Positions 20,881 to 39,468 of a DNA stretch of 41,228 bases are shown one piece after another. Made by a program: the position numbers and the translations under genes. The notes under the pieces are model-generated. The model made no database searches and was not told the origin of the DNA. It worked only from the letters and a program-made list of their open reading frames with translations. Origin of the DNA: an uncultured Victivallaceae bacterium (lineage in GTDB: Bacteria > Verrucomicrobiota > Kiritimatiellia > UBA8416 > CAYSRM01); contig CAYTRK010000001.1 of NCBI GenBank assembly GCA_964440205.1, forward strand, positions 1-41,228, read 5' to 3'. Numbering within the stretch: the first letter of the stretch is position 1; each line of letters starts with the position of its first letter.

Positions 20881-22592
20881 TTAACAAATATATAGCTGCA
20901 GTCCTTGTTTGCGCGCTTGCGCCTGTCTGTGTGTTTGCATTAATTGATGAGGACAGTGGAAGCGGCAATGATGTGAGAAGCAGGTATATGCTGCCCAAAC
21001 CTGCTGCTCAAAAGAAGTTTGACAAATTCATGAAGCAGGTTTCGCGTGCCATGGTACGTTCTGAAGTCCCTGCAGGCAGTTACAGACTTAGCGGCTTTGA
21101 GGTTGACGGCCCGGAGATAATCTCGCGCAAGATTGTAGCGAGGATAATAAAGGGCTATCTCGACAAACCATTATCTTCTGACGATATCCGGGCGTGTGTT
21201 GATGCTGTTACAAAGGAGCACCGCAAACGCGGTTATGTAACGTCTTATGCCGATTTTGGCGGGCTTACCCGGGCCGGCGAGGGTGATACTTATATTCTCA
21301 ATGTGGAAATAGTTGCGGGCAAGATTGGCGATGTAAAAGTCGCAGGCAACAGATTTTTCAGTGAAGACGTTATAAGGGACAGGCTCGATGTGGAGCAGGG
21401 TGAATATTTCAATCTCAAGGATCTTCAGTTTGGTGTATACAAGACGAGCCGTGTTATGGACAGGCGGGGGACATTGGATATTGATTATGATATGGACAGT
21501 GGTCTTTCTGATGTCAGTGTTATGGTTAAGGACACGGTGCCTGTTCATGTTACGTTTGAGATGGATAGTTACGGTTCGTGGTTCATTAATCAGAACCGTT
21601 ACAGGATCATGACCCTGCATAACAATCTCACCGGGCATGATGACCAGATACAGTTCAAGATGCAGTGGGCAGATAAAAGTGCGCATGAGCTTTATGATGT
21701 AGCTTACAGACTGCCGCTGGGGAACAAGTTCTGGTGGGAAGGTTATTTTATGCCTTATAAGGCGGAGGACTACTTTCATGATATGGCAGGCATTCACAAG
21801 CGTGCCTGGAAGACTTACACTTACCTGCATTACAATATGATAGAAGAGCCGGGCAGGAGTTTTATCTGGGATCTGGGTTTCGTGTATAAGCACATAGACT
21901 GGCAGTTGCCCCAGGGTAGTAATGTCAAGAGGGATCATTTCAGCGGTGTGCTTTTCGGATTCGACCTGGATTTCTCGGACAAGCGTGGCAGGACCATAAT
22001 TACGGATGATCTTGAAATCGGCATACCGGGTCTTTTCGGCGCAACGGAAGAAGATGTGGACGAAACTTCGGTAAAAGGCGCTGACGGGCAGTATGTCAGG
22101 AATCACCTTATTGTTGCGCGCAGACAGAAGCTGTTCGAGGGAACGGATTTTTTGCTGAAAAGTCATTGGCAGGTGGCAGATGCGGTGCTGACCGGTGTTA
22201 ACGCTTTCAGTGTGGGCGGCTATTTTGGGATAATAGACATGCGCGGATATCCGCGCGCTCAGGCGTACGGCGAGAACGGTTTATCTGTGTCTTCCGGATT
22301 TTCGTTTGCACCCTATTTCCTGCCCAGGGACATGAAGGTGCCGGGATCTAAGGGCACTTTTTTCAAGACAACCCAGTTGTTTGCCCTTATTGATTGGGCG
22401 ACGGTCAGCAAAAAACAGCCGCCTGAGGGTGAATCTCACAGCACAACGCTGGCGTCTGGTGTGGCCGGCATGCAGATGACGTTGCCGGAAAAGTTTTTTT
22501 GCAGGCTCGATGTGGGTATCCCGTTGACTGATGATGAACCTAAGGACGACAGGGACTATCAGGTATGGTTTCGTATAAGCAAAATGTATTGA
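20877..22592 (+). CDS. ShlB/FhaC/HecB-type (TpsB-like, Omp85 superfamily) outer-membrane transporter
   Basis: 571 aa. Its ATG overlaps the upstream TGA (ATGA at 20877-20880). Signal MINKYIAAVLVCALAPVCVFA. POTRA-like YRLSGFEVDG...KEHRKRGYVTSYADF...LNVEIVAGKIGDVKVAGNRFF. A long beta-barrel region ends in the aromatic WFRISKMY. Confidence 0.85.
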   Translation: MINKYIAAVLVCALAPVCVFALIDEDSGSGNDVRSRYMLPKPAAQKKFDKFMKQVSRAMVRSEVPAGSYRLSGFEVDGPEIISRKIVARIIKGYLDKPLSSDDIRACVDAVTKEHRKRGYVTSYADFGGLTRAGEGDTYILNVEIVAGKIGDVKVAGNRFFSEDVIRDRLDVEQGEYFNLKDLQFGVYKTSRVMDRRGTLDIDYDMDSGLSDVSVMVKDTVPVHVTFEMDSYGSWFINQNRYRIMTLHNNLTGHDDQIQFKMQWADKSAHELYDVAYRLPLGNKFWWEGYFMPYKAEDYFHDMAGIHKRAWKTYTYLHYNMIEEPGRSFIWDLGFVYKHIDWQLPQGSNVKRDHFSGVLFGFDLDFSDKRGRTIITDDLEIGIPGLFGATEEDVDETSVKGADGQYVRNHLIVARRQKLFEGTDFLLKSHWQVADAVLTGVNAFSVGGYFGIIDMRGYPRAQAYGENGLSVSSGFSFAPYFLPRDMKVPGSKGTFFKTTQLFALIDWATVSKKQPPEGESHSTTLASGVAGMQMTLPEKFFCRLDVGIPLTDDEPKDDRDYQVWFRISKMY

Positions 22593-23492: not shown

Positions 23493-23885
23493 ATGAGCGA
23501 TGAGAAGAAACATATTCTTCTGGTTGGCACTGAGAAATGCTTTATATCAACGCAGGGCACGAAGCGCCTCTGATATATTCGGCTGAAGGCGCCTTGAAAG
23601 GATCGCTCCCGCCATGCGGTCCTGTTGTAGGGATTATTCCTGACGCTACTTATTCATCCCAGAAGGTTGTCATCGAGAAGAATCACTCGCTGGTTCTGTA
23701 TGCCGATGGCCTTACTGATTCACGTAACGGGCAGGGAAAGGAATATACTTTCGACCGGCTGAAGAAGCTTTGCGGCAATCCGGTTTGATCGGGTGCGGAG
23801 ATGCTGGACATGATCACCTCGGATGTGCAGGGGCACATAGGTGGCGCAGATCAGTTTGATGATCTTACGGCTGTCGTGGCGCCGG
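23493..23885 (+). pseudogene. Remnant of a response-regulator/PP2C (SpoIIE-type) phosphatase gene
   Basis: Three frame-discontinuous pieces. (1) MSDEKKHILLVG (receiver-like start) runs into a stop at ~23570. (2) An 83-aa ORF, LYINAGHEAPLIY...LVLYADGLTDSRN, corresponds to the C-terminal half of a PP2C domain. (3) Another frame after 23788 reads GAEMLDMITSDVQGHIGGADQFDDLTAVVA, the PP2C C-terminal motif. The N-terminal metal-binding half is missing. Confidence 0.6.
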
Positions 23886-23899
23886 ACGGTCTGACCGTT

Positions 23900-25483
23900 T
23901 CAGGGTTTGATCATCTTGAGTGTAAGGATGGTAATGTCGTCAGACTGGGGAGACAGGCCCGCGTGGTGTGTTACTGAATTCATAATTTCCTCGGTTATTT
24001 TGCGTGGGTCTGTATGTCCCGTTTTTTCCAGCGTGGATTGGAGTCTTTTCTCGTAATACATCTCTCTGTTGACATTCATGGCTTCTGTTACGCCGTCTGT
24101 GCAAACGACTATGGTCTCGCCCTGTTGCAATTCAGAGGTAAGGGTCGTATATTTGGCTCCCGGCATTACCCCGAGTACTATGCCTTTCGGAAGTTCGAGT
24201 CGACGCGATGAGTTTTTTGTCTCCATAATCAGGGGCGGGTTGTGACCGGCGTTTGAATACCGGAGTTCGCCTGTCTTGATATTAAGGATTGCGCAGAACA
24301 TTGTAACGAAGAGCAGGCGCTCGTTTTCCTGCGAAAGATCTTCGTTTACGCGATCGAGTATTTCAGCCGGGTTATTGCCTATTTCGTGCGCGGCGCGTTT
24401 CATGAGAGTTATGGTTACAGCCATCATCAGAGCGGCCGGGACACCTTTGTCCGAAACGTCGCCTACGTAGAAGAAGAGGTGATCATCGTCTATCATGTAA
24501 AAATCATAGAGATCCCCTCCGACTTCCTTTGCCGGAACGAGTGTGGCGTACAGATCAAATTCCTTTTTGTCCGGGAAGACTGGAAACAGTTTCTTAAGGA
24601 AACTCATCTGTATGTCATGTGCGATTTTGAGTTCACTCTCAATGCGCTCTTTCGCGGCTGTTGTTTCCTTGAGATTCTTGATGTATTCGAGCAGCCGCGC
24701 AGCCATTGTAGAGAATGCGGAAGCAAGCTGACCGACCTCGTCCTTGTAGACAAGTCCCATCTGGTGCAGTTCGGCGCGCTGTTCCTCCGTGAATTTGAAT
24801 CCGCCTTCGGACAGAACATGGATATACGAAGTCAGCCTGCCGACAGGCTTCAGAATATGGGAAATTACGATATAACTGCATATCCATACCAGCACGGAGA
24901 TGAGCAATCCCAGCCCGACATTGATCATGATGCTGCGATTAAGTTCGTGTGCAATGAAATCGAGGGACACATCGGCGCCGATGATATAGCGGTTTCCGTT
25001 TGCGGTTGTGCGCGGAATAAAAATAGAGCGGAAGAAACCCCATTCGTCTGAATATTCAGCGTATTGGACCGTGCGTGTTTTCCACGCTTTTGTCATTGCC
25101 GCGGGTGGTTGTTCATACTTGGTGAAATAGGGGGTTTCGTTTTCGTTGCGGATCTCGTCTTCTGTTGCGCTTGTCGTTGCGACATAGAACTGTCCCTGGT
25201 ATTTGACATAGGTGTAAAGGTATTTTATGTCAATTTTGTTGGCATACTGGCTCAATTCGCGAAGTATATGTTTGTGTTCTTCGGAAGAGATCGCGTCGGG
25301 AGTCCGGGCTCTATCGTGGAAGCCTTCCGGGATCAGTTTAGGAAGCACAGTTGCTACAGACTCTAATTTGCTGTCGACGCCTTCCAGGAATGCGTTACGC
25401 TGGAGTATGCAGGCGGTAATTGTAAAGGCGATGGTAGCGACAATGTTGATCGCAAAAGCAATCAACAGCATTTTACTCCTCAT
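23900..25483 (-). CDS. Membrane sensor PP2C phosphatase (TM - periplasmic Cache-like domain - TM - HAMP - SpoIIE), RsbU-like
   Basis: All PP2C/SpoIIE motifs are intact: KEVGGDLYDFYMI, YVGDVSDKGVPAALMMAV, YSNAGHNPPLI, VVCTDGVTEA, SDDITILTL. The HAMP-like region is ILKPVGRLTSYIHVLSEG. Start options are ATG 25483, ATG 25471 (GAGGAG upstream) or TTG 25501 (4-nt overlap with the upstream stop). Confidence 0.9.
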   Translation of the reverse strand: MRSKMLLIAFAINIVATIAFTITACILQRNAFLEGVDSKLESVATVLPKLIPEGFHDRARTPDAISSEEHKHILRELSQYANKIDIKYLYTYVKYQGQFYVATTSATEDEIRNENETPYFTKYEQPPAAMTKAWKTRTVQYAEYSDEWGFFRSIFIPRTTANGNRYIIGADVSLDFIAHELNRSIMINVGLGLLISVLVWICSYIVISHILKPVGRLTSYIHVLSEGGFKFTEEQRAELHQMGLVYKDEVGQLASAFSTMAARLLEYIKNLKETTAAKERIESELKIAHDIQMSFLKKLFPVFPDKKEFDLYATLVPAKEVGGDLYDFYMIDDDHLFFYVGDVSDKGVPAALMMAVTITLMKRAAHEIGNNPAEILDRVNEDLSQENERLLFVTMFCAILNIKTGELRYSNAGHNPPLIMETKNSSRRLELPKGIVLGVMPGAKYTTLTSELQQGETIVVCTDGVTEAMNVNREMYYEKRLQSTLEKTGHTDPRKITEEIMNSVTHHAGLSPQSDDITILTLKMIKP

Positions 25484-25497
25484 TGTAAGTCTTTTTC

Positions 25498-26874
25498 TCA
25501 AATCTTATCCTGTCTTTTAAAGTCAATTCTCTTAACCAATAACATCGGAATCTCTTTATGAACAGCATATTGTTGTGCAATCGCTTGAATATTGCGGGCC
25601 AATTCGTCGATATTGTCCTGTGAGTATGTTCTTATGCAGGAATCGAGCTTTTTTCCGGCTTCATTGTCTTCCATGTGGAGAATCACAGTTTTTTCTGCCG
25701 GCTCTGCATCTTCGACATGTATCGACCCGTTCGGGCCGTTGTATTTTACGATTTTGATACTGCCGGTTTCTGCAGAGCATTCGATGCCTGCGATCTTGTC
25801 TATCCTGAAAATTTCCAGGGCTTGTTCAACGGCTTTTTCGATACCATTTATGCTGAGTTTCTGTTTCAGCAGTGCTTCTGCGGCCGATGCCATGATGGCG
25901 GTATCCAGCGGTTTTGTGCCGTGGGAAACAGCTCCAACTATCGCGTATAAGGTGGGGTCATTGTTCGTAATTACGCATATATTTGAAATTTCGTTATCTG
26001 CATGTGCGGTTATACGGATATGGAATGAATCGGTGTCAAGGGCGCGGGTTCTTTTCCTGTTTTGTCTGTAGGCGATTGCCAGATCCTGTTCTGTTCGGAA
26101 CATTTCTACATCCATGAGTTCGCGGCGGGCCCTGACCTCGGTGTCCTTGAATATGCTGGCCGCCGTAAGGAACGTGTTCCAGAGATCATGTATCTCCCGG
26201 ATGCTGCCGGGTGGAGGCATGCTGGTTTTTGTGTCGGAATTGGAGATCGTTTCTACCGACTCGGCGAATGTTCGGATGTTACTTTTGAGCATCTGGCTTA
26301 CGATGAATACGCAAAGCAGGCCCATGCCGAGGGCAACTGCTATACCGCGCGAGATGGTTTTGATTGCCCTGGTTCTGGAAACGGCCAGTGACGATGCGTC
26401 TGTCTTGATCAGAACGTATCCTGCAATATTGTTGTCCGAATCAAGCAGAGGGGAGCAGGAGAATACGACATCGGTGTCTGCGCTATCGCGGGTGATCCTG
26501 GTGATGTTTCCGTCTTGGGCGCGGCATTCTTCAAGCAGAGACTTATCGGGAAGCGGTTTGCCTCTATCTCGGCCTATGTCGAGTATAATCTCCTGCTGAT
26601 CTTTTGTCAGAGCAATTATGCGCAGGGCAGTGCCGTGGCCTGTGACCTTCTTAACCGCGCGGAGCAGGTCGGGTGGGGGCTGCTCGTCGGCTTCAAGGGT
26701 CTGGATGTCTTCGGAAATAAATTCCGTAACCACGACGCAAATGCCCCCTGCTTCCTCCATCAAGCCCCATTTTGTCTCCTTAATTTCCATGATATAGACG
26801 ACAACGGCAGTTGCTGCGGCCAGTACAAGAAATACAGGGAGGATACTGCGGAAACATAGTGTGCGGATATTCAT
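25498..26874 (-). CDS. Membrane sensor protein with degenerate SpoIIE/PP2C-like C-terminal domain
   Basis: 458 aa, with an ATGA overlap with the upstream gene. Two TM helices flank a ~140-aa periplasmic region. The C-terminal region YAIVGAVSHGTKPLDTAIMASAA resembles the GDVSGHG..AA..M motif with Asp replaced, and IKIVKYNGPNGSIHV and IPMLLVKRI occupy the positions of the NAGH and DDITLL motifs. Confidence 0.75.
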   Translation of the reverse strand: MNIRTLCFRSILPVFLVLAAATAVVVYIMEIKETKWGLMEEAGGICVVVTEFISEDIQTLEADEQPPPDLLRAVKKVTGHGTALRIIALTKDQQEIILDIGRDRGKPLPDKSLLEECRAQDGNITRITRDSADTDVVFSCSPLLDSDNNIAGYVLIKTDASSLAVSRTRAIKTISRGIAVALGMGLLCVFIVSQMLKSNIRTFAESVETISNSDTKTSMPPPGSIREIHDLWNTFLTAASIFKDTEVRARRELMDVEMFRTEQDLAIAYRQNRKRTRALDTDSFHIRITAHADNEISNICVITNNDPTLYAIVGAVSHGTKPLDTAIMASAAEALLKQKLSINGIEKAVEQALEIFRIDKIAGIECSAETGSIKIVKYNGPNGSIHVEDAEPAEKTVILHMEDNEAGKKLDSCIRTYSQDNIDELARNIQAIAQQYAVHKEIPMLLVKRIDFKRQDKI

Positions 26875-27281
26875 GCGGAGACGGTTTCCTCTTGTTTGTT
26901 AAGTGTCTCAAGCTGGGGCTCTGCAAGCATATTAAGTATTATGGACGGATGCTGATAGATGATGGTGAAAAATATGCCTCTTTCAAGTATGAGGCAGATT
27001 GCTCCGACCGGCGAAGCAATAATGTCTTCACCAACCTGCATGTCGAGCAGAAGCGATGCCGGACCGAATACCGATGGTGTTCGCCTGTCGGTCCTTGTCT
27101 GAAAAGACCCTTCGATTACGATGTACATGCGGCTTAATTTCTTGCCGGCACTGCAGAACAGTTCGTCCGGTTCGTAGGCTCGTTCTAGGAGTGAATCCGC
27201 TATTCTGGCAATGTCCAGGTCCGAGAGCTCGGAAAAGACGTCAGAACGCTTCAAGGCGAATATCTTTTCTATTATGTTCAC
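26871..27281 (-). CDS. Stand-alone cyclic-nucleotide-binding-like (CNB/CAP-fold) domain protein
   Basis: 136 aa with GTG start and 4-nt overlaps at both ends. CNB-like pattern SDVFSELSDLDIARIADSLLERAYEPDELFCSAGKKLSRMYIVIEGSF...FGPASLL...AICLILERGIF. The phosphate-binding-cassette Glu/Arg are not evident. Confidence 0.65.
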   Translation of the reverse strand: MNIIEKIFALKRSDVFSELSDLDIARIADSLLERAYEPDELFCSAGKKLSRMYIVIEGSFQTRTDRRTPSVFGPASLLLDMQVGEDIIASPVGAICLILERGIFFTIIYQHPSIILNMLAEPQLETLNKQEETVSA

Positions 27282-29419
27282 GGCGCCGCCTTTCTGTTTC
27301 TAAATACACCTATGAATATTTGTCTTCCATCTCTGTTGGTCAGTTCCTTCAGAATAACGCTTATCAGCTCGAATGCCTTTGGCGGATCTGCTTGGTTTTG
27401 CTTCATCAAGAGCATGTTTTTGACCTCATCGCTGATGGTTTCGAGATTGTCCGAAATGATGATCCACTCGATGTCTGTGTTGAGGGGGGTGTGGCCATTG
27501 TTGAGTTGGGTCTCTTCGATTTTGCCGGCTTTAATGGTGAGTGCCGGAACAGGGGTGTCGGTTCGGCAGAATATACCTTTCTCTGAATACGTTACAGTTG
27601 TCTTCAGCGCGGGGTCCGCGGGGTGATCCAGGCCGCCGGATATCATCGCGCATGTTTCACATCTTTTGCCGATCGCATCGATCGCGTTTTCGTGATGATC
27701 TTTCGCGAGCCATGCTACGGTGCGGTCTCCGTTGCTTGCGTATCCTGATGATGTCCGGTGGTCGGAGCTGTCCGTCCATCCGAAAGCCCAATTTTCGCAT
27801 GACTCTTGTGAGCATTGCTGTGTTGATCTGTCGAGCGCTGACAACAGATCATTGTTCATCCTGCGGGCGCCTATGTCGCTGTTGGTGGTTCTGAGGTTAT
27901 GGACGGTCTCCTCCAGTTTCCGGCCGAGTCCATTGAAAGCCGACGAGAGACGTTGCAATTCCGACGGCGTTGTTATTTCGACCTTGTGGCTGTAAACTCC
28001 GGCGGCGATCATGAGCGCGGAGTTTCGCAAGGCTGTAATGGGTTTTATCAGTTTGGCGGAGAACTGTATCGATATGTAACCGGCGCCCAGAGCGGCGCCC
28101 AGAGCGAGCATGCCGAGCGTAAAAAGAGCGAGACGGGTCTTGTTGTTTACAACCGTAATGTTTATGTCTGCGCCAGTCATGGCGGTGATGCTGTCGTCGA
28201 TGTTATAGATAGGCGCGTAAGACACCTTCAGGAGGCCCCATTGGTCGGTGGCTGTTATGTCTCCTATATGTATAACGCCGTAAAGAAGAACACGTTGGGC
28301 GCCGTCGTAGTCCTCGCTGGCGAGTGTGTCTTCGTCACCGATCATGCTTTCCTGGGTGGCGTCGAGAACATAAACGCAGTTTGGTTTTTCCTGAAGAACC
28401 TGGGTATAGAGGTAGGTTAGTCCGGTTCTGTCGAGTATCCTCTTCATCGTCCTGACGTATTTTCTGTACACAGGCGACTGCATATCGTGTGACTTGTATA
28501 TGGCGGCATGCTCTTCGCCCTTAATGAAGCATCCCGTAGAACCGCTCAGGCCAGCAAGTTTCCTGTTAAAGCCGTCAATGATGATATTGTGCAATTGGTT
28601 GTAGAAAATAAAGCCCCAGAACAAAGTCACGACAAGCAGGGCAGGAACGACCAGCAAGAGAACAAAAGTCTGCAGTTTTACGGCGGTACTGTGTGCTGCC
28701 ATGATGTCGTCGCCGTGCGCAGCAGAGAGCAGTTGTATCTGTCGGGCCACAGCGTGGCCTATGAGCCACGACATAATGATTCCGACAAGAGCAATGGCCG
28801 CAGAGACCTGGCTGAGTCGAATTTTCCATGTCCTGATCTCTGCGCGTACATCTTCAATGTACATCCCGGTTCCGATAATCCAGCCCCATGGTCTGAAAAG
28901 TCTTACATAACTTATTTTCGGCACGATACGCGTGGCATCGTCCTGCCATTGCCAGGAGTATTGCACGAAGCCGGCACCGTCTTGGCGGCATACGTTCACG
29001 GCTTCAACGAAAAGGGCTGTACCGTTGGGGTCCCTGAATTTTACAAGATCACTGCCGTCCATTTCCGGCTTATAGGGATGCATAATCATTCTGGGCTGCA
29101 TATCGTTAATCCAGAAGTAATCTTTCATCTCCGGGCCGTAGCGTATGTGTTTGATGAGATTCGCAGCCTGCCGCCTGGCTTCCTGTAGAGGCATGATGCC
29201 TTGTTCTGCCAGAGAATTATGGTGGTTCAATATGCTCCATGCCGTTTCAGTTGCTTCGCGCAGTTTCTCGCGTTTTTTGTTGATAAGAGCTTTTTCGGCA
29301 GTAGGAATGATGACCAGAAAATTAGTAAGTACGAAAAGGGATGTTATGATCAGGCCGCCGATAATGACCTTGGTTGATACCCTGAGGCGTTTCAATATGG
29401 TTTTACCTGCCTGGCTCAT
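27278..29419 (-). CDS. Four-TM double-sensor protein: sCache_2-like domain + second Cache-like domain + HAMP + degenerate PP2C-like C-terminus
   Basis: 713 aa with an ATGA overlap with the upstream gene. sCache_2 signature IRYGPEMKDYFWINDMQPRMIMHPYKPEMDGSDL...GAGFVQYSWQW...WGWIIGTGMYIEDV. The second extracytoplasmic domain (GLTYLYTQV...WGLLKVSYAPI...GADINI) resembles the sensor of the 23900 phosphatase. HAMP-like LIKPITALRNSALMIAAG. The C-terminus has no intact PP2C Asp motifs. Confidence 0.85.
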   Translation of the reverse strand: MSQAGKTILKRLRVSTKVIIGGLIITSLFVLTNFLVIIPTAEKALINKKREKLREATETAWSILNHHNSLAEQGIMPLQEARRQAANLIKHIRYGPEMKDYFWINDMQPRMIMHPYKPEMDGSDLVKFRDPNGTALFVEAVNVCRQDGAGFVQYSWQWQDDATRIVPKISYVRLFRPWGWIIGTGMYIEDVRAEIRTWKIRLSQVSAAIALVGIIMSWLIGHAVARQIQLLSAAHGDDIMAAHSTAVKLQTFVLLLVVPALLVVTLFWGFIFYNQLHNIIIDGFNRKLAGLSGSTGCFIKGEEHAAIYKSHDMQSPVYRKYVRTMKRILDRTGLTYLYTQVLQEKPNCVYVLDATQESMIGDEDTLASEDYDGAQRVLLYGVIHIGDITATDQWGLLKVSYAPIYNIDDSITAMTGADINITVVNNKTRLALFTLGMLALGAALGAGYISIQFSAKLIKPITALRNSALMIAAGVYSHKVEITTPSELQRLSSAFNGLGRKLEETVHNLRTTNSDIGARRMNNDLLSALDRSTQQCSQESCENWAFGWTDSSDHRTSSGYASNGDRTVAWLAKDHHENAIDAIGKRCETCAMISGGLDHPADPALKTTVTYSEKGIFCRTDTPVPALTIKAGKIEETQLNNGHTPLNTDIEWIIISDNLETISDEVKNMLLMKQNQADPPKAFELISVILKELTNRDGRQIFIGVFRNRKAAP

Positions 29420-32400
29420 GCGGGATCCTGCTTATTTCGTGTATTATGCGTGTATGAGAACATTTGTACGACGATTTCCGGGTAAATTCTTGCAGTTTGC
29501 AGAATGCTGTTGCGGGGTATTGCGAGCAGTACAGCGTCTTTTCCGACAGCCTGACTTGTATAGCAATCAAGGCCCCGAAGCAGCTCATCGCCGGCGAGTT
29601 CGTGACAGGATCTTGATATGCCCGTGCCGTTTTTACCGATGCATTCTACGTTGCCTTCCAGAATGACGTAAAGTGTTTCTGCAGGATCCCCCTTGTTGTA
29701 GAGGGCGCCGTTGGGGGCAGAGATTACTTCGGAAGTATTGATTAAAGTTTCAAGCTGGGTAACGCGTATATCGCGGAAGAACTTTGCCTTTGTCAGGCAG
29801 TAAGCTTTTTCCATGGGGTTGAGCTGCAGGCTGTCTTTGTCTTGCGGTGAAGTCTCGTTCAGCAGAGCGAATATTGCTTCGGAGATCATCATGTCGGCAT
29901 TACCGATATTATGCTTCATTATTTCTCTCAACGCGGCACGGCAGATGGGGTCATCAGGTTGGTAGTTCAGTCGCCATGCGGCTTGCAATGCAGAGGCTTG
30001 TTCAACAGGAATTCTGCTTGAGCAGCTTTTCAGCAGGACGTCGGATACGGAAAGGGGTTTATAATCGAAGTTATCCCTGTAGAAGGTAATTGTATCGCTC
30101 ACGGGCCGTGCATCAAGCAAGGGCAGAAGCATTCCAAACGTTTTTCTACTGCATCCCTGTTCAATTGTCTCTATGGCATTTGCCCGCTCCTTCGCATTGC
30201 GTGATCGCAGGAATACTGCGAGCATCTCAAAGTCGGGAAGCCGGCCTGCAATGGTTAGTGTTTTCAGCACGAAATCGATTATAGCTGACTGAGTATCCCT
30301 GTATACGCGCGCGAGAAATTCCAGCGCGGGTATTGATGTTGAATGCCCGGAGATTATCCAATGTGCGTTAATGTATTGATATGCCTTTTCTATCGCATCG
30401 AAAATAAGCTCGTCAGCCACTGCTTCGAACTGCGGGAATGAAAGAATGCCGAGTGTCTGGGTCGCAACTGATTTGTTGGCGAAAGTGACGTCCGGGTCTC
30501 TGAGTATTGAGATAAGTGAGGGGACGCTGCTCAGTCCCGTTTTTAGAACGATCTCCTCCACACGTTTTTTCTCGGGAGGGGTAAACCCGGATGTCATGTT
30601 GATAAGAGGCCTGATGCAGGATGGGTTTGCTATGGCTTCCAGGGCATCAAAACCGCGGTCTCGCAGTCTGCCGTCATCGCGGCTGACAAAATCAATGATT
30701 GGCGGCACAAGGCGTTCGGATGACGGGCCGACCAGCATGGATATTGATTTTATGGCCTGCTCCCGTACGGACTGTGAATCGTATGTCAGAAATTCGGCAA
30801 GGAAGTGTGCGTATTTGGTATTGCCGGAGGATTCTACAATTTGCATGGCCGCGATTTTCTCGCTGTCGGCCCCCGTCATAAAATCACTTGCCACCTGCAT
30901 GGATGTGAGGCCCTCTGTCGGTTTCCAGCTTCGCCACCTGGCGATAGCGGCAGCAGTCTGATGTGCGATCGCGGGGTCTTCTGAGAGTGTTTGTATTTCC
31001 TGTTGGCTTAACATGTTGTATCGTGCGCATATTTCGAGCAGGCGGGAAGATACCTGCATGCGTTTATCGTTCAGCCATTGCAGCACCTTTCTGCGTCGTA
31101 TGCTGTTATCATTCTGAAGAACGATTTCAAATAAGTCTACTGCCGATTCGGGTGGATCCATGCTGTGAGCGGACATAAAATCAAGAAACATGTCGAGCGC
31201 TTTATTTTTGTCGTTGAGCCAATAGATGGCTATGGCCGACACGGCATGAGCCGGGTTCGGCGAGCGTGTTTCTTTTTCTAACGAATCCAATTCTTTGTTG
31301 TCCAGCATGGCCAGGCGGTTTCGCTCAGAGCGGGAGAAATTAAGCCATGTTTTCTTAAGGCTGTAGAGCATGGATGTGAGGTAATGGGCTCTCAGTCCGA
31401 ATATGGAACACAGTGCGATAGCCGTACCCGCAAGTCCTATCAGCGACAACGTTTGTGCGCTGAGTCTGGGGGCTAACATAACCAGAAAGAGTCCTGCTGA
31501 TGCTGTCGCCAGCGGTTCGCATAATCCCTCGATGAATGTACGGACCTGCGCCTTATCTCTGGCTGGTATGGCATTGAATAGAAAGTTCTGGTTATTGTAC
31601 TCCACGGATGTCAGTACGCCCTGATAGGCGAAAAAGCCGGCAACCGCCGCGCCGAAACCGTAGTCCAGCAGAAAGTAGCTGAAGGTAACGGCATAGACCA
31701 CAGGCTGTATCAGCGTAACATTTCTTACTCCCATAAATGCCACAAGCCGGTTGAAGACAAAAAGGTTGATGAGAATATTAAGTCCGTTCACGCCGGTATA
31801 GAGCTTGCCGAAAAGTGAGGCTACTTCAGCTTCGGTCCGGTTCTGTTCGAAGATCTGCATATACTGGAACTCGCAGAGAGTGGTAATCATCAGTGTTGTC
31901 AGGAATGCCAGGATCATGAAGTTAGTATAACGTGATTCGCGGAGAATGGCGTACAGGCGAGAGATCTGCTCGCGAAAAGACGGTAGTTCTTTTGTTGTAA
32001 GGGCCTCTTCTTCGCTTATCTTATGCCAGTGTTTCCTGAGGCGGAAGACCACTGGAAATGCCGCAAGCACCAGGGCTGACCACACCAGAAACAGGTGCTG
32101 AACATTTACAAACTGAATGAGTGTTACAACAATGCTGCCGCCTATCATTGTGCCGAACGCCATTCCTGCGCTCATGAAGCTGAACAGCCTTTTTGCGTCT
32201 AGTATGTGGAAATAGCAGTCTATAAAGTTCCATAGCAGTGTATAGAGAGCTATGTACCACAGTGTTGTGTAAAGCTTGGCCACATAGTACAACAGTGCGG
32301 GGGGCGCATCGCAGCCCGGTATAAGCCCCGGCGATAGAAGTATGTAGAGGGCTGCGCCTCCGGCTATAAGTGTGCACATGGTGATGTATAGCAGTCGGTC

Positions 32401-32637
32401 TATACCGAGCCTGTTGGTCAGGTACGCGAAAGCCGGTATGTAGATCAGCATGATGAACGGGGTGGCCATATAGATGAAGGGAAGTTTGTCTGCGCCGACA
32501 TGGATCAGGAACAGTGCGTCGGCACAGCTTATGCCTACCGCGAGCCCTGCCTGCAGTATTGCGGCAAGAAGGGCGAAGCTGAGAACTTTTTTCCCTTCGC
32601 CCGGATGTATTTTTAAAAGTTGCTGCAGCTTTTCCAA
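29416..32637 (-). CDS. 1073-aa fusion: TLC/ATP:ADP-antiporter-like polytopic transporter + HEAT repeats + C-terminal CNB-like domain
   Basis: The N-terminal ~440 aa have ~12 TM helices, with a start typical of TLC-like carriers (LLKIHPGEGKKVLSFALLAAILQAGLAVGISCADALFL). The middle has HEAT-like repeats (DSQSVREQAIKSISMLVG..., SRDDGRLRDRGFDALEAIANPSCIRPL, RSRNAKERANAIETIEQG). The C-terminus reads FFRDIRVTQLETLI...GDPAETLYVILEGNVECIG...LAGDELL...AVLLAIPRNSI. Confidence 0.85.
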   Translation of the reverse strand: MEKLQQLLKIHPGEGKKVLSFALLAAILQAGLAVGISCADALFLIHVGADKLPFIYMATPFIMLIYIPAFAYLTNRLGIDRLLYITMCTLIAGGAALYILLSPGLIPGCDAPPALLYYVAKLYTTLWYIALYTLLWNFIDCYFHILDAKRLFSFMSAGMAFGTMIGGSIVVTLIQFVNVQHLFLVWSALVLAAFPVVFRLRKHWHKISEEEALTTKELPSFREQISRLYAILRESRYTNFMILAFLTTLMITTLCEFQYMQIFEQNRTEAEVASLFGKLYTGVNGLNILINLFVFNRLVAFMGVRNVTLIQPVVYAVTFSYFLLDYGFGAAVAGFFAYQGVLTSVEYNNQNFLFNAIPARDKAQVRTFIEGLCEPLATASAGLFLVMLAPRLSAQTLSLIGLAGTAIALCSIFGLRAHYLTSMLYSLKKTWLNFSRSERNRLAMLDNKELDSLEKETRSPNPAHAVSAIAIYWLNDKNKALDMFLDFMSAHSMDPPESAVDLFEIVLQNDNSIRRRKVLQWLNDKRMQVSSRLLEICARYNMLSQQEIQTLSEDPAIAHQTAAAIARWRSWKPTEGLTSMQVASDFMTGADSEKIAAMQIVESSGNTKYAHFLAEFLTYDSQSVREQAIKSISMLVGPSSERLVPPIIDFVSRDDGRLRDRGFDALEAIANPSCIRPLINMTSGFTPPEKKRVEEIVLKTGLSSVPSLISILRDPDVTFANKSVATQTLGILSFPQFEAVADELIFDAIEKAYQYINAHWIISGHSTSIPALEFLARVYRDTQSAIIDFVLKTLTIAGRLPDFEMLAVFLRSRNAKERANAIETIEQGCSRKTFGMLLPLLDARPVSDTITFYRDNFDYKPLSVSDVLLKSCSSRIPVEQASALQAAWRLNYQPDDPICRAALREIMKHNIGNADMMISEAIFALLNETSPQDKDSLQLNPMEKAYCLTKAKFFRDIRVTQLETLINTSEVISAPNGALYNKGDPAETLYVILEGNVECIGKNGTGISRSCHELAGDELLRGLDCYTSQAVGKDAVLLAIPRNSILQTARIYPEIVVQMFSYTHNTRNKQDPA

Positions 32638-32639
32638 CG

Positions 32640-33329
32640 TCAGTCTCTTGATTTTGAAAGCGAGAACACGTGGCTGATATGTTCATGTTCCTCGTCTCTG
32701 AATCCCGGGTGCGGCGGTTCCCGCCACGTGTAAACTGTGTTTGCATCAATGTTGAATCCCTCGTCCCGGAGAATCTCTGATATCTCATTCTCTTCCCAGA
32801 ACCGGTAAAGGTATTGCTCTTTGTAAAGAAAGGTCATGTCGGAAAAGGGGGTCATGTTCTTGCCGGCAATTCCGTCATTCCCGCCGGGGATGTTGCATAT
32901 CATTCTTCCGCCGGCCGCGAGGATCCGGTATATTTCCTGCAATGCAGGACGGGGATTCTCGAAAGTTTCGAAGACATCACAGAGAAGGACGAGATCAAAC
33001 GAACCTGATCGATAAGGCATGCGGATCAAGCTGCATTGAGCGCAGAAGACCTTCTCCCTGACTTCGGGAGAAATTTTATTAAGCGCGTTAATGGAGGAGT
33101 CGCAGGCGTGCAGAGTCGCATTGGTGTTGAGCAGTAGTTTCAGGTGTCGCCCTTCGCCTGTGCCTGCGTCCAGCACGCGCGATTGTGCATTAGGGATGCC
33201 TTTGAGCCGATCCAGTTCGGGTTGCAGAAAGGGAACCGGTACATTGCCCCAGATTTTTTTAATGCTTGTGCTGTATAGCGCGTTCCATGCATTGATGGAG
33301 ACGTCGTTTATGTTTTTGCTGCTTTTCAT
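32640..33329 (-). CDS. Class I SAM-dependent methyltransferase
   Basis: 229 aa with motif I RVLDAGTGEGRHL. Post-I/II motifs LHACDSS and FDLVLLCDVFE, then LAAGGRMI. Confidence 0.88.
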   Translation of the reverse strand: MKSSKNINDVSINAWNALYSTSIKKIWGNVPVPFLQPELDRLKGIPNAQSRVLDAGTGEGRHLKLLLNTNATLHACDSSINALNKISPEVREKVFCAQCSLIRMPYRSGSFDLVLLCDVFETFENPRPALQEIYRILAAGGRMICNIPGGNDGIAGKNMTPFSDMTFLYKEQYLYRFWEENEISEILRDEGFNIDANTVYTWREPPHPGFRDEEHEHISHVFSLSKSRD

Positions 33330-33345
33330 AAAATCTGCTTCCTTT

Positions 33346-34542
33346 TCAGGGAACCATTTTTTCCAGGAAAGATCCTCTGCAGCAATGGTTGGAACTCATC
33401 GAACTTCCATAGCCGCCCGCGTTTAGCAAGGCGAGATAATCACCCTCTTTGACAGGTGAAAGCAAGATATTCCTGCCGAAAACATCAAGTGCTTCGTTGA
33501 TATTGCCTGCTATTGTTACTCTTTGCTTTGAGCCGGGACGCGGCCGGCAGGGCACAACATGCAGGGGAAGGTTGTAGAAGGCGGGTTCGATATGTATATT
33601 AAAACCTGCGTTTACGCCCACAAAAAGCGTATCTTGTCGCTGTTCTACGGTGTTTATCTGTACGATAAGGATTCCTGCGTCTTTGACAATGTAGTCGCCG
33701 GGTTCCACCCATAAGTTGACTTCTCTGCGCTGTAAATGTTTCTCCATAAGGGAGGACCATGCTTCAAGGTCCAGCGGTTTATCATTTTGGCTGAGTGGAA
33801 CGCCGAGGCCGCCGCCTATGTTCAAGTGATCAACATCGGGGAACATGTTGATGAAAGAAAGCAGTCCCTGCAGTATGCTCTCCATATTGTCAAGGTCGCC
33901 GTTCAGATAGCCGCAGCCGCAGTGAAAATGAATGCCTGATATTTTAAGCCCGTGATTTTCGGCCAGATCACGTGCTTCCTCAATACGGTCGTAATATATG
34001 CCGAATTTAGTCGTATTGCCGCCCGAATATCTCAGGAGTTTGTTCTGTTGATAACCAAGGCCGATGTCCGGGTTGATTCTGATTCCGATGGAACGGGGGC
34101 CGCCGATGGCGGCAAATCTGCGCATCATGCTCAGGGAATCGCAGTTCACGTATATATCCGGCTTGCCGGAAAGGAAGCGAAGATCGGCATCGGAAAGGGA
34201 TGTTCCCGTATAAGATATATCCTGTTCCTTAAACCCGCAGGCCAGCGCCAGCTTGACTTCGCCGGGCGAGCAGGCATCAATACCGCATAGATCCGTATGC
34301 TTTATAAGGTCCAGGACTTTTTCAAAGCGATTGGCTTTCATGGCATAAAACAGCCTGAAATCAAGGGTACGCTTCTTTAATGCTTTTGTGAGTCTTTCAA
34401 TATTTTCCTGGATGCGCTTTCTGCTATATAAATAGAGTGGTATTCCGGCCTGTGCAGCGAGTTCATCAGGTCGTATTCCGTCGAAAAACAGTCCATGTTC
34501 GTCGAGGCCTAATTCAGGCTTTTGCCACCATTGATTGTTCAT
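33346..34542 (-). CDS. PLP-dependent group IV decarboxylase (Orn/DAP/Arg decarboxylase fold; LysA/NspC-like, substrate unknown)
   Basis: 398 aa. PLP-Lys motif RLFYAMKANRFEKV, then HLNIGGGLGVP, WVEPGDYIVKDAG and NAGGYGSSMSSNHCCRG. Confidence 0.9.
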   Translation of the reverse strand: MNNQWWQKPELGLDEHGLFFDGIRPDELAAQAGIPLYLYSRKRIQENIERLTKALKKRTLDFRLFYAMKANRFEKVLDLIKHTDLCGIDACSPGEVKLALACGFKEQDISYTGTSLSDADLRFLSGKPDIYVNCDSLSMMRRFAAIGGPRSIGIRINPDIGLGYQQNKLLRYSGGNTTKFGIYYDRIEEARDLAENHGLKISGIHFHCGCGYLNGDLDNMESILQGLLSFINMFPDVDHLNIGGGLGVPLSQNDKPLDLEAWSSLMEKHLQRREVNLWVEPGDYIVKDAGILIVQINTVEQRQDTLFVGVNAGFNIHIEPAFYNLPLHVVPCRPRPGSKQRVTIAGNINEALDVFGRNILLSPVKEGDYLALLNAGGYGSSMSSNHCCRGSFLEKMVP

Positions 34543-34680
34543 GTTTAATTAAATCAGAGAAACTCAAGCAACTTTGCTTGACCTTTTGATCACCTATTGA
34601 TATTTCCTAGTGGCTACATATGTTATTCTCTGCAAGGGATGATCTCACAGTGAAAACCATAAATCAAGGGAGATAGTAGA

Positions 34681-36501
34681 ATGAAAACTGGTTTCTCGAT
34701 TTCAGACACAATTGCCGGTTATGTTGCGTCCTCTGATCCTAAGAGCAGAAAGTTCAAGCTGAAGACAAGTGACGATCGGGAATTCGAGGTGCTTATTACT
34801 GATGCGACGTATGCCTACATGGTCATGAACTTTGGCGACGACTGGAAGGACTGCATGGGGGACATTGCTGACCGGCTTGTCGCGGGCGCTTTTATTTTTG
34901 TGCATGGTTTCTTTTATCCCGATGCTGATGGAGAGTTTGAAGCCAAGTGGCTGGTATTTAATGGTGACAATCCTGGGGGCTACCGTCATATGGAGCAGGA
35001 TTGGTGGATCAGGCAGATCAGCGCCATTGCTTCAAAATACATCGAGTGGCAGTTCGACTATCCGGAGAAAGATATTGATTACAACAATTACAGGACAAAG
35101 CTGCATGTCAACGGCCAGAAATTAGGTGACGGCATTCAGGAGGTTGACACGATCTCCAGGATGACATACGGCATGGCCTCGGCCTACATGCTGACAGGTG
35201 ATGAGAAATTCCTTGAAGCAGCGGAGAAGGGAACCAATTACCTGCGTGATCATGCGCGCTGTACAGACAAGGAAGACATTGTTTACTGGCTGCATGCTGT
35301 CGAGAAGAAAGAGGACGGTAGTGAGGAGAAGATGCTGTGTTCTCTCTTTGGCGATGACTACGGGACCATACCGGTATATGAACAGATATACGCGCTTGCA
35401 GGACCGATTCAAACGTACCGCTTGACGGGCGATCCGCAGATTCTTGATGACGCCGACAAGACCATTGCGTTGTTTGACAACTACTGCAAGGACAAAGAGA
35501 AGGGCGGCTACTGGTCGCATATCGATCCGGAGACATTCAGTTGCACGGCGGAGAAGCTGGACGAGACTAATAACCGCGCCAGGAAGAACTGGAACTCGGT
35601 GGGCGACCACGCTCCGGCTTATCTTATCAACCTCTGGCTTGCCACGGGTGATGATAAATATGCGGATTTTCTTGAATACACTTTCGATACGATCGAAAAA
35701 CACTTTCCGGATTATGATGAGAGCCCGTTTGTACAGGAGAAATTCTTTGATGACTGGAGTAAAGACCAGACATGGGGCTGGCAGCAGAACAGAGCGGTTG
35801 TCGGGCACAATCTGAAAATTGCCTGGAACCTTATGCGAATGAATAGTCTCAGGGCTAAGGATTCGTATGTTGCTCTTGCCCGGAAGATCGCTGACCTGAT
35901 GCCTGATGCAGGCTGTGACAGACAGAGGGGCGGTTGTTATGACGTGGTGAGTCGCACTCTTGAAAAGGGACAGAAGCAATATCGCTTCACGTGGCACGAC
36001 AGGAAGGCCTGGTGGCAGCAGGAACAGATGATACTTGCCTACCTTATCCTTTACGGCATTCTTGGTGACGATGAGTACGGTAAGCACGCTGTTGAATCGG
36101 CGGCTTTCTATAATGCCTTCTTTCTTGACCTGGCAGATGGCGGAGTTTACTTCAACGTTTTGGCAAACGGACTTCCGTATCTTTGCGGAACGGAGCGACA
36201 CAAGGGCAGTCATTCCATGAGCGCATATCATTCCACGGAACTCTGCTTCCTGGCGGCTGTTTACACAAACCTTCTCATTACAAAGAAGCCGATGGATTTT
36301 TATTTCGCGCCGAAGTCGAACGGATTTAAGGATGGGATACTGCGGGTGTCTCCGGACATACTTCCTGCCGGCAGTATTAAGATTACGAGCGTGGAGATAG
36401 ACGGTAATGCGTATGATGATTACGATGCAGAGGGGCTGACCGTTAAGCTTCCGGAGACGGAGTCAAATCTCCGCGTCAAGGTTACTGTCTCTCCCGTGTA
36501 A
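34681..36501 (+). CDS. AGE-superfamily (N-acylglucosamine 2-epimerase-like, alpha/alpha-6 barrel) protein with extra N- and C-terminal domains
   Basis: 606-aa ORF. KAWWQQEQMILAYLILYGILGDDEYGKHAVESAAFYNAFFLDLADGGVYF and VGHNLKIAWNLMRM resemble AGE-family helix-pair motifs. The family call comes from pattern recognition only. Confidence 0.6.
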   Translation: MKTGFSISDTIAGYVASSDPKSRKFKLKTSDDREFEVLITDATYAYMVMNFGDDWKDCMGDIADRLVAGAFIFVHGFFYPDADGEFEAKWLVFNGDNPGGYRHMEQDWWIRQISAIASKYIEWQFDYPEKDIDYNNYRTKLHVNGQKLGDGIQEVDTISRMTYGMASAYMLTGDEKFLEAAEKGTNYLRDHARCTDKEDIVYWLHAVEKKEDGSEEKMLCSLFGDDYGTIPVYEQIYALAGPIQTYRLTGDPQILDDADKTIALFDNYCKDKEKGGYWSHIDPETFSCTAEKLDETNNRARKNWNSVGDHAPAYLINLWLATGDDKYADFLEYTFDTIEKHFPDYDESPFVQEKFFDDWSKDQTWGWQQNRAVVGHNLKIAWNLMRMNSLRAKDSYVALARKIADLMPDAGCDRQRGGCYDVVSRTLEKGQKQYRFTWHDRKAWWQQEQMILAYLILYGILGDDEYGKHAVESAAFYNAFFLDLADGGVYFNVLANGLPYLCGTERHKGSHSMSAYHSTELCFLAAVYTNLLITKKPMDFYFAPKSNGFKDGILRVSPDILPAGSIKITSVEIDGNAYDDYDAEGLTVKLPETESNLRVKVTVSPV

Positions 36502-36554
36502 GGAATAATGCAACAGACTTCTTCTCCGAAACGGCGGAAGAATGAAAGGAAATT

Positions 36555-36890: not shown

Positions 36891-36900
36891 GGAATATTCT

Positions 36901-39021: not shown

Positions 39022-39029
39022 AGGTCTCT

Positions 39030-39449: not shown

Positions 39450-39468
39450 CAAAAAAGGAGAATGAGTG

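Follow-up and report, generated by a model that had tools for sequence, protein, structure and literature searches.

What could a decarboxylase, a methyltransferase, a transporter-like protein of more than a thousand residues, a small protein of the CNB fold and three membrane sensors, one of them a serine phosphatase, be doing together in one tightly packed run of genes? The question is raised by a stretch of 41,228 nucleotides from an uncultured Victivallaceae bacterium (assembly GCA_964440205.1, contig CAYTRK010000001.1, positions 1 to 41,228, its full length; the whole stretch is referred to here as the window), in which seven such genes follow one another on the minus strand between positions 23,900 and 34,542. 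Our answer is that four of them, beginning with an NTT-HEAT-cNBD membrane protein (cNBD, cyclic nucleotide-binding domain), form a conserved core found in about 14 phylum-level lineages, and that the seven genes are probably, though by no means certainly, the membrane input half of a partner switch of the icfG type, the divergent operon being its output half. The seven genes, in the order in which they are read, and the region upstream of them are as follows.

33346-34542, minus strand: deC, a LysA-like fold-III pyridoxal phosphate decarboxylase and apparently a cluster-specific paralogue, 398 aa (Pfam, TIGRFAM)
32640-33329, minus strand: MT, a class-I S-adenosylmethionine-dependent methyltransferase and partner of deC, 229 aa (Methyltransf_11)
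29416-32637, minus strand: the giant protein, an NTT(TLC/MFS-like)-HEAT-cNBD membrane protein and anchor of the core, 1073 aa (Pfam matches of the family)
27278-29419, minus strand: CACHE713, a sensor with four transmembrane (TM) segments, 713 aa (sCache_2, HAMP, TM segments)
26871-27281, minus strand: mini-CNB, a stand-alone protein of the CNB fold, 136 aa (family profile)
25498-26874, minus strand: S458, a predicted TM-PDC-TM-HAMP pseudo-phosphatase sensor, 458 aa (AlphaFold2 model, Foldseek)
23900-25501, minus strand: PP2C533, a TM-PDC-TM-HAMP-PP2C serine phosphatase of the RsbU/SiaA type and the catalytic output, 533 aa (SpoIIE, HAMP)
34543-34680, no strand: divergent intergenic region of 138 bp between deC and an AGE-like gene (sequence)

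All seven open reading frames (ORFs) were found where the original prediction had placed them. Recomputed from the sequence, the junctions are +16 nt between deC and MT and +2 nt between MT and the giant gene, and each of the next four is an overlap of 4 nt formed by a start and a stop codon (ATGA at 29416-29419, GTGA at 27278-27281, ATGA at 26871-26874 and TTGA at 25498-25501). The last of these had been put forward only as a possibility; starts at ATG codons 7 and 11 of PP2C533 would instead leave gaps of 14 and 26 nt. We consider the TTG start, and with it the overlap, to be supported because the N-termini of PP2C533 orthologues extend that far.

The evidence that these genes belong together comes from other genomes. 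Twenty-four diverse homologues of the giant protein were aligned, and the resulting search fetched 80 loci (designated by L-numbers), on contigs from one genome per species, the ORFs of which were searched with the window proteins; some of the gene-content counts given below refer to the 44 loci that are fully flanked. The core order, giant protein, PDC/HAMP sensor, mini-CNB and S458, all on the same strand, was found in about 14 phylum-level lineages, among Verrucomicrobiota, Kiritimatiellota, Lentisphaerota, a deltaproteobacterial metagenome-assembled genome (MAG), Cloacimonadota, Gemmatimonadota, Bacteroidota, Spirochaetota, Bdellovibrionota, Armatimonadota, Cyanobacteria, Schekmanbacteria, Campylobacterota, and Alpha- and Gammaproteobacteria. 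A CACHE713 orthologue is the next gene downstream of the giant gene in all 73 loci with enough DNA, mini-CNB comes next in 63 of the 72 informative loci, and the S458 family follows in at least 42 of 65, a lower bound set by detection with single sequences, as members of that family are only about 20% identical. The junctions are kept as well: the giant and CACHE genes overlap in more than 60 of 73 loci, and 4-nt overlaps join CACHE to mini-CNB in 52 of 65, mini-CNB to S458 in 32 of 46 and S458 to PP2C in five of eight. The arrangement is far beyond chance; the cluster is real and conserved. The absence of synteny from other genomes, which the original prediction had named as the outcome that would overturn it, is decisively not what was found, as the same core was retrieved in 80 loci with the giant protein as anchor, and the tight coupling and probable complex that it had proposed are strengthened by overlaps and gene order that persist across phyla. 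Judged by their overlaps, the four core genes are shown to be translationally coupled across phyla.

The cluster also varies. The genes of Cyanobacteria bacterium UBA8530 (L034) lie on one strand in the permuted order MT, CACHE, mini-CNB, S458, giant protein and decarboxylase. Sphingomonadales and Phenylobacterium (L051-L079) carry a short form of the cluster, with a giant protein of about 870 aa that lacks the cNBD, a CACHE orthologue of about 430 aa that lacks the accessory sensor, a divergent PP2C gene upstream and, downstream, a STAS gene and a kinase-SET-decarboxylase unit in which a SET-domain methyltransferase takes the place of the class-I enzyme. The cluster is also carried by Niveispirillum irakense DSM 11586, Sphingopyxis flava, Novosphingobium mangrovi, Rhizorhabdus argentea and Thiorhodospira sibirica, and since these carriers are culturable, genetic experiments are feasible.

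From its sequence features, the giant protein is a member of the NTT-HEAT-cNBD fusion family: in common with that family it has a membrane domain resembling NTT/TLC proteins, followed by HEAT repeats and, at the C-terminus, a cNBD. The fusions, NTT-HEAT as well as NTT-HEAT-cNBD, were defined by Major et al., 2017 (PMC5381601), who found them to be a widespread clade, monophyletic and uncharacterised, and mentioned that in some genomes a separate gene for a cNBD lies nearby. They considered these proteins possible transporters of nucleotides and suggested that ATP uptake is tuned by the cNBD; they reported no NTTs in Spirochaetes, and an NTT-HEAT protein in Chlamydia. The giant protein has about ten hydrophobic segments within residues 18-415, and 156 homologues of about 1050 aa each were found. 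Over the whole NTT domain it is 27% identical to the C. trachomatis NTT-HEAT protein (E = 1e-34), and residues K149, R150, E256, R366 and E370 of the membrane domain are invariant. Taken alone, the window protein stays below the Pfam gathering scores for TLC (19.3 bits against 21), HEAT_2 (24.5 against 27.7) and cNMP_binding (21.8 bits over residues 976-1048; cNMP, cyclic nucleoside monophosphate), whereas among the 24 aligned members HEAT_2 was matched in 24 (best E = 1.5e-13), cNMP_binding in 16 and TLC (PF03219) in seven (best E = 1.6e-10). The domain searches that the original prediction had proposed as a check therefore bear it out in single sequences for deC, for MT, for the sCache_2 and HAMP domains and for HAMP with SpoIIE/PP2C, but for the MFS/TLC, HEAT_2 and cNMP modules of the giant protein only at the level of the family.

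The original prediction had also called the HEAT and CNB modules regulatory. The folds are present in the family, but the window CNB modules lack the Arg with which cyclic nucleotides are bound. In the cNBD of the giant protein the Gly and Glu of the phosphate-binding cassette are kept, but most members, the window protein among them, have no Arg there; the canonical 'RRATV' occurs only in Spirochaetota loci. By itself mini-CNB gives a weak Pfam cNMP match (E = 0.002), and the profile of its family matches the CNB domains of PKG, PKA, CRP and MloK1 (best E = 3e-29), so that by profile comparison mini-CNB is a genuine CNB fold; neither the Glu nor the Arg of the cassette is conserved in its family. 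Because the canonical cNMP-binding Arg is missing from these modules, binding of cAMP or cGMP by the window proteins is doubtful. In the Spirochaetota, five Leptospiraceae loci (L021, L022, L025, L027 and L030) encode giant proteins with the 'RRATV' cassette, preceded by a long insertion, and have a HAMP-cyclase in the cluster; from these motifs, a true cNMP loop may operate in this lineage. A general co-variation of cyclase output with the canonical Arg was considered and rejected: it holds in the Spirochaetota only and fails in the Opitutaceae and Bdellovibrionota loci that have a cyclase.

The three membrane sensors are related to one another. CACHE713 has a periplasmic sCache_2 domain between TM1 and TM2 (residues 38-196; 132 bits, cutoff 25), a periplasmic PDC domain (about 272-430), a HAMP domain (456-503; 29 bits) and a C-terminal region of about 200 aa. 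Its PDC domain is homologous to the periplasmic domains of S458 (residues 25-180) and PP2C533 (30-195), with hhalign probabilities of 95-99% among the three (98.2% against S458 and 98.9% against PP2C533), and members of the S458 family cross-match residues 248-511 of CACHE713. At the level of homology, these comparisons show CACHE713, S458 and PP2C533 to be paralogues on one TM-PDC-TM-HAMP chassis. The four periplasmic ligand-binding domains that had been predicted for the three membrane proteins are all there, as sCache_2 and three homologous PDC domains. The 'double-Cache' description of CACHE713 is right in that both periplasmic domains exist, but the N-terminal one is a lineage-specific addition: its place is taken by sCache_3/dCache_3 in a Kiritimatiellae locus and by DUF6923-type repeats in other lineages, and it is absent in Alphaproteobacteria.

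S458 had no Pfam match in hmmscan, and a word-indexed homologue search with it retrieved nothing but S458 itself. Exhaustive searching with HMMER gave 191 representatives, each about 450 aa long, and an AlphaFold2 model built on 51 representatives reached a predicted local distance difference test score (pLDDT) of 89. In Foldseek searches with this model the periplasmic domain matched the PDC sensors of CitA, DcuS, WalK and KinD, and the C-terminal ~200 residues matched RsbX (3w40; E = 6e-6, TM-score 0.65, root-mean-square deviation 3.7 Å over 212 columns), with further matches to MtX, Rv1364c (3ke6) and SpoIIE and to entries 3zt9 and 5ucg. When S458 was aligned with PP2C by hhalign, 'EISNICV' stood opposite 'GGDLYD' and 'GAVSHGT' opposite 'GDVSDKG', the place of the 'GDVSGKG' motif, and no Asp is conserved in this domain among either 51 or 50 family members. 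Since the PP2C fold is matched and yet no metal-coordinating Asp is conserved, S458 is, on the modelled fold, a PP2C-fold pseudo-phosphatase that has lost its metal-binding Asp residues. The C-terminal domain of CACHE713 is probably a pseudo-PP2C too. It aligns with that of S458 at an hhalign probability of 79%, co-linear with the PP2C motifs but weak, and with PP2C at 14%; its model has the topology of S458 at pLDDT 60-77 (76 for the model), and the multiple sequence alignment of paralogues biases that model. The claim of three membrane sensors is in this respect correct but incomplete, as S458, and probably CACHE713, are paralogues of the phosphatase itself.

PP2C533 matches SpoIIE/PP2C (172 bits) and HAMP. 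Its metal-binding residues D330, D348, D469, D521 and D522 are present and are conserved at 97% or more in 41 orthologues, by which it is shown to be the only one of the three paralogues with an intact catalytic PP2C site; its PDB profile matches are RssB, Rv1364c, SiaA (6k4e) and SpoIIE. The single catalytic PP2C output that had been proposed is upheld by these five intact Asp residues and by STAS and kinase genes nearby.

Part of a second PP2C gene is also seen in the window. At 23537-23910 on the plus strand lies the decayed C-terminal half of such a gene, with the motifs NAGH, YADGLTD and QFDDLT, an in-frame stop near 23789 and no N-terminal catalytic half; it runs towards the PP2C533 gene and overlaps the 3' end of the latter. 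Either a paralogue was once present here and has decayed, or the sequencing or the assembly is at fault.

The output attached to the core changes between lineages. PVC bacteria and Alphaproteobacteria have a HAMP-PP2C as catalytic partner, its gene lying either downstream or, in divergent orientation, upstream. The fifth gene of Spirochaetota and Bdellovibrionota encodes a HAMP-class-III cyclase, and some Opitutaceae have a 7TMR-DISM cyclase. In a Bacteroidota MAG (L011:8253-9962), the gene directly upstream of the giant gene encodes a protein whose residues 31-307 match the sensor and HAMP of PP2C533 (residues 4-279; 165 bits) and whose residues 288-554 are a class-III nucleotidyl cyclase (~200 bits), which by these matches is a clean swap of output on the same sensor chassis. 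In the Azospirillaceae (L042:14831-16576 and L044; Niveispirillum irakense and Azospirillum sp.), the position of S458 is occupied by a 582-aa fusion of S458 and an RsbW-type kinase, with HATPase_c_2 at residues 445-566 and a STAS gene directly after it. A PP2C or a cyclase is present in 33 of the 44 fully flanked loci, and PP2C, STAS and kinase occur together in 22.

The presumed substrate of PP2C533 is encoded across the divergent intergenic region, in an operon on the plus strand.

34681-36501, plus strand: AGE/cellobiose-2-epimerase-like (α/α)6 protein, 606 aa (GlcNAc_2-epim, 60 bits)
36555-36890, plus strand: STAS anti-sigma-factor antagonist, 111 aa (STAS, 79 bits; TIGR00377, 88.9 bits, cutoff 53.45)
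36841-39021, plus strand: GlgX, glycogen debranching enzyme (TIGR02100, 697 bits, cutoff 640.9; CBM_48, Alpha-amylase and Isoamylase_C)
39030-39449, plus strand: RsbW/SpoIIAB-type serine kinase or anti-sigma-like switch protein, 139 aa (HATPase_c_2, 80.3 bits, cutoff 27.4)
39466-40035, plus strand: DJ-1/PfpI-family protein, 189 aa (DJ-1_PfpI, 78.5 bits)
40056-40424, plus strand: small CBM48/AMPK-β-type glycogen-binding protein, 122 aa (AMPK1_CBM, 58.8 bits)

The STAS and kinase pair that had been predicted here was found, with glgX between the two genes. In the STAS protein the phospho-acceptor motif S-S-A-G-L-R (S53-S54) is invariant in all 31 cluster-linked orthologues, and the protein is presumed, from this motif, to be the substrate of both PP2C533 and the kinase. 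The kinase has weak matches to RsbW models, and its homologues stand beside STAS in 33 of the 80 loci. Judged by its motifs, then, the component set of the RsbU/RsbV/RsbW type is present: a PP2C with intact Asp residues, a STAS protein with the serine motif and a HATPase_c_2 kinase. With the TTG start listed for it, at 36841, GlgX would share 50 nt with the STAS gene, and the GlgX model aligns only from residue 41; the true start probably lies downstream of that TTG. The set of AGE-like protein, STAS and GlgX is also next to the core in six other loci of the PVC type (L004, L008, L043, L047, L048 and L080), where the order AGE-like protein, STAS, GlgX and kinase recurs, and highly conserved orthologues of the DJ-1 protein (274-340 bits) were found next to the cluster in L008, L024, L034, L043, L047, L054 and L080. 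The contig contains three DJ-1/PfpI/ThiJ-like genes, within 17723-19302 on the minus strand and at 39466-40035 on the plus strand.

The 138-bp divergent region holds a perfect palindrome, TCAAGCAA-N-TTGCTTGA, at 34564-34581, which was flagged on both strands by the terminator scan and is a candidate operator for the co-regulation of both operons. The promoter and terminator consensus scan performed at chance level and was uninformative either way, and Rfam and tRNA scans of the window showed no feature.

The operon at 34681-39449 has a close counterpart in Synechocystis sp. PCC 6803. There the icfG operon (slr1852-1862, with the cluster slr1855-slr1861) encodes, in order, a GlcNAc-2-epimerase-like protein (Slr1855, annotated as N-acetylglucosamine 2-epimerase; PMC8670252), the STAS protein Slr1856, GlgX2 (Slr1857), a second STAS protein (Slr1859), the PP2C IcfG and the kinase Slr1861. 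The STAS proteins are phosphorylated by Slr1861, which is also an anti-SigC factor, the phosphate of Slr1856 is removed by IcfG, and mutants in the operon do poorly when grown on glucose or with little carbon (PMC12329169, PMC8670252). The window has the AGE-like protein, STAS, GlgX and RsbW-type kinase in the same order, and the two systems are alike in a PP2C/STAS/kinase logic that is tied to carbon metabolism. In contrast to Synechocystis, where the second STAS protein and the PP2C are encoded between GlgX and the kinase, the kinase gene of the window follows directly after glgX, there is a single STAS gene, DJ-1 and CBM48 genes are added, and the PP2C is a membrane-bound, HAMP-linked sensor that is encoded in the opposite operon with the NTT-HEAT core. 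A second STAS gene is present in L004, L008, L043 and L080.

Chlamydia offers a precedent for the pairing of active and inactive phosphatases. Its membrane protein RsbU (CT588) adjoins a paralogue, CT589, that lacks the metal-binding residues (PMC4552016), and RsbU feeds the STAS proteins RsbV1 and RsbV2 and the RsbW kinase and reports on metabolic state (PMC4552016, PMC13463777); as in the window, a HAMP-PP2C with a periplasmic domain stands next to a membrane pseudo-PP2C paralogue. The periplasmic domain of Chlamydia RsbU did not match the window sensors in single-sequence or profile searches. We considered whether CT590 (954 aa), which adjoins CT589 and RsbU, might be the NTT-HEAT protein of Chlamydia, in which case the rsbU locus there would be a reduced form of this cluster, and found no support for this, as the published transposon-junction peptide 'RVQDL' (residues 123-127) does not match 'PTFLY' of the NTT-HEAT protein. 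A Chlamydia NTT-HEAT gene beside rsbU is unsupported: the retrieved contigs, including that of C. psittaci, show unrelated SDF/SNF transporters upstream and end downstream.

The triad of PP2C, STAS or STAS-like protein and HATPase_c_2 kinase is shared with SiaABCD of Pseudomonas aeruginosa, with RsbU/RsbV/RsbW of Bacillus and with SpoIIE/SpoIIAA/SpoIIAB, and SiaA is, like PP2C533, a HAMP-PP2C membrane protein (NF038263 match; PDB 6k4e). The equivalog scores of the window proteins to the Sia, Rsb and SpoII models are far below cutoff, and those systems have no NTT-HEAT-cNBD partner, pseudo-phosphatase paralogues, stand-alone CNB protein or deC-methyltransferase pair. Rv1364c of Mycobacterium tuberculosis (PAS-PP2C-RsbW kinase-STAS) unites a PP2C fold and a kinase in one protein, as the S458-kinase fusion of the Azospirillaceae does, but in Rv1364c, a cytosolic protein, the PP2C is competent for catalysis, whereas S458 is membrane-bound and its site degenerate. 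A paper on the general stress response of Sphingomonas was set aside as unrelated, since it concerns PhyR/NepR and an unrelated glgX. The original prediction knew of no described system with this composition. That holds for the assembly as a whole, but the family of the giant protein (PMC5381601) and an icfG-like operon (PMC12329169, PMC8670252) were already known; the former paper does not include the PDC/HAMP paralogues, PP2C or cyclase, STAS and kinase, or deC-methyltransferase neighbours seen here, and no description of this gene neighbourhood was found in the searchable literature on 'NTT-HEAT'. The parts are known, and we have not found described their assembly from an NTT-HEAT-cNBD hub, pseudo-phosphatases, a CNB subunit, plug-in modules and a deC-methyltransferase pair.

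Based on these observations, we propose a model in which, as we think it reasonably likely, the seven genes supply the membrane input and the divergent operon the output of an icfG-type partner switch. The core proteins would assemble into one membrane complex for which the HEAT domain serves as the cytoplasmic scaffold. Periplasmic ligands, acting through the PDC and Cache domains, and a cytoplasmic or transported ligand, acting through the NTT-like domain and CNB modules, would set the conformation of the HAMP-linked paralogues, and the two pseudo-phosphatase paralogues would regulate the active HAMP-PP2C by hetero-oligomerisation. PP2C533 would then dephosphorylate the phosphorylated STAS protein, which in its unphosphorylated state would capture the RsbW-type kinase; the captured kinase would release its other partner, which could be an enzyme or, by analogy with Slr1861 and SigC, a sigma factor. 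This release would switch carbon storage or glycogen catabolism through GlgX, the AGE-like enzyme and the CBM48 protein. In the lineages that carry it, the deC-methyltransferase pair would make an N-methylated amine that is a substrate or ligand of the complex.

Several observations weigh against this proposal. We infer the complex, the HEAT scaffold and the regulation by pseudo-phosphatases from gene order, fusions and folds, and gene order and annotation are what link the window proteins to their putative Slr orthologues. Foldseek and PDB-profile searches with the C-terminal domain of CACHE713 gave no PP2C match, and the CNB modules of the window are without the Arg that canonically contacts cNMP. 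Eleven of the 44 fully flanked loci have neither a PP2C nor a cyclase, and the core may accordingly play an independent role. The GlgX and AGE-like trio accompanies only some PVC loci, and the link to glycogen may be lineage-specific. Finally, no sigma-factor gene was found among the window ORFs scanned against Pfam, a few ORFs (e.g. 251-931) being outside that scan; the target of the kinase may be encoded elsewhere or may be an enzyme.

How the decarboxylase and methyltransferase fit in is best judged from their distribution. The deC protein matches Orn_Arg_deC_N (115 bits) and Orn_DAP_Arg_deC (57 bits), and its closest PDB sequences are diaminopimelate (DAP) decarboxylases. Against the lysA equivalog TIGR01048 it scores 249.3 bits, below the cutoff of 297.9, and ten orthologues from other phyla score 198-230 bits against that model and 380-460 bits against the window protein. 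Given that all 11 proteins tested are below the LysA cutoff and yet score highly among cluster-linked orthologues, deC is, by these scores, a dedicated cluster-linked paralogue and not a canonical LysA. It is present in 42 of the 80 loci, in several positions and orientations, and a methyltransferase adjoins it in 35 of the 42. The partner differs between lineages, being a class-I enzyme like MT (Methyltransf_11, 64 bits) in Verrucomicrobiota, with or without a second, MTS/PrmC-like enzyme; a SET-domain methyltransferase in Sphingomonadales and Caulobacterales; and an amine N-methyltransferase of the NNMT/PNMT/TEMT family in Cloacimonadota (L005). In three Verrucomicrobiota loci (L043, L048 and L080) decarboxylase and methyltransferase are fused in one polypeptide of 656-668 aa. 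This adjacency, the fusions and the NNMT/PNMT-type enzyme of L005 favour the earlier suggestion that the two enzymes work as a pair to make a decarboxylated, N-methylated amine.

The MTS/PrmC-like methyltransferase lies between deC and the class-I gene in Opitutaceae loci (e.g. L016:8448-9248), and another stands beside the SET gene in Azospirillaceae (L042:7330-8022). A PADLOC defence-system scan of nine window proteins gave a single match, a generic methyltransferase similarity to mad2 at 41 bits.

These data also bear on other explanations. The best matches of deC to DAP decarboxylases, and the short gaps rather than overlaps that join the deC-MT part, might be taken to mean that a housekeeping lysA and a methyltransferase have come to lie beside unrelated sensor genes by chance. 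This is hardly credible, given that deC falls below the LysA cutoff but is close to its cluster-linked orthologues, that the linkage recurs across phyla with fusions and permuted order, that the order and overlaps of the core are conserved, and that protein identities of 28-50% across the 80 loci argue against mis-assembly or a single recent mobile element. Quite improbable, too, is that the cluster is in the main a regulated transporter, with the NTT-like domain importing or exchanging a nucleotide or related metabolite and with the sensors, CNB modules and PP2C/STAS/kinase set as accessory regulators of transport, not as a pathway that has a transcriptional or enzymatic target downstream. 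STAS domains do regulate other transporters, and 11 of 44 loci lack a catalytic output gene. The membrane domain falls in the NTT clade and the cNBD has been proposed to tune ATP uptake (Major et al., 2017; PMC5381601), and the invariant charged residues within the membrane point to selection as a binding or transport site. However, a conserved pair of pseudo-phosphatases and a swappable PP2C or cyclase on one chassis are typical of signal transduction, the classical pair of a partner switch is represented by the RsbW-type kinase and a single-domain STAS protein whose phospho-serine is invariant, and the same STAS/kinase/GlgX set acts on a sigma factor in Synechocystis.

A further explanation, which the original prediction had put forward, is a closed loop, autocrine or of a quorum type: deC and MT would make an N-methylated amine, the NTT-like domain would export or re-import it and the PDC and Cache domains would perceive it. 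Cache and PDC domains commonly bind amines, amino acids and carboxylates. The dedicated nature of deC, its linkage in varied positions and orientations, its adjacency to or fusion with a methyltransferase and the 2 nt that separate MT from the giant gene all speak for such a loop, and the interchangeable, non-orthologous methyltransferases (class I, SET and NNMT/PNMT-type) all N-methylate amines, which suggests a small-molecule step. Against it, 13 of the 44 fully flanked loci, including all examples from Leptospiraceae, Bdellovibrionota and Bacteroidota, have no decarboxylase within 10 kb, and the core can therefore work without a linked module for signal synthesis. Moreover, in Alphaproteobacteria the decarboxylase lies within a kinase-SET-deC operon and not with the transporter, so it could be the target rather than the source of the signal; the accessory sensor module differs between lineages; and the NTT-like domain allows neither substrate nor direction of transport to be deduced. 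As an alternative to the partner switch we hold this loop to be rather unlikely; as a layer added to the partner-switch model it is compatible and plausible.

On a wider reading, the NTT-HEAT(-cNBD) proteins, hitherto regarded as orphan nucleotide transporters, could be the hub of an unrecognised and very widespread transmembrane signalling machine. In it a transporter-like receptor or 'transceptor' would be combined with HEAT-scaffolded pseudo-phosphatases and a CNB-like subunit, and with plug-in modules both for input, which are lineage-specific (Cache, PDC, DUF6923), and for output (a PP2C partner switch or a cNMP cyclase). In many lineages the signal would be an N-methylated amine that the machine's own deC-methyltransferase pair supplies. 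We offer this wider reading tentatively and would sooner doubt than assert it in full. Members of the family are known from oomycetes and pathogenic Chlamydiae, from cyanobacteria, and from free-living bacteria in a wide range of phyla, and the family has been an orphan since 2017; the conserved neighbourhood gives it a first testable role. Furthermore, a candidate now exists for a membrane input to the icfG cluster of carbon regulation, the studied form of which has none. A design principle may also be discerned, in that an active enzyme is apparently controlled by its own inactive paralogues, and the Chlamydia RsbU/CT589 pair hints at the same.

The remainder of the window contains genes that are unrelated to the cluster; judged by gene content and nearest relatives, the contig probably comes from the PVC group. 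At 9542-15695 on the minus strand and 20008-22592 on the plus strand lie two genes of the FGE-sulfatase type and genes for an MFS transporter, an Lcl_C-repeat protein and a two-partner-secretion transporter of the ShlB/FhaC type, a content typical of polysaccharide degraders of the PVC group.

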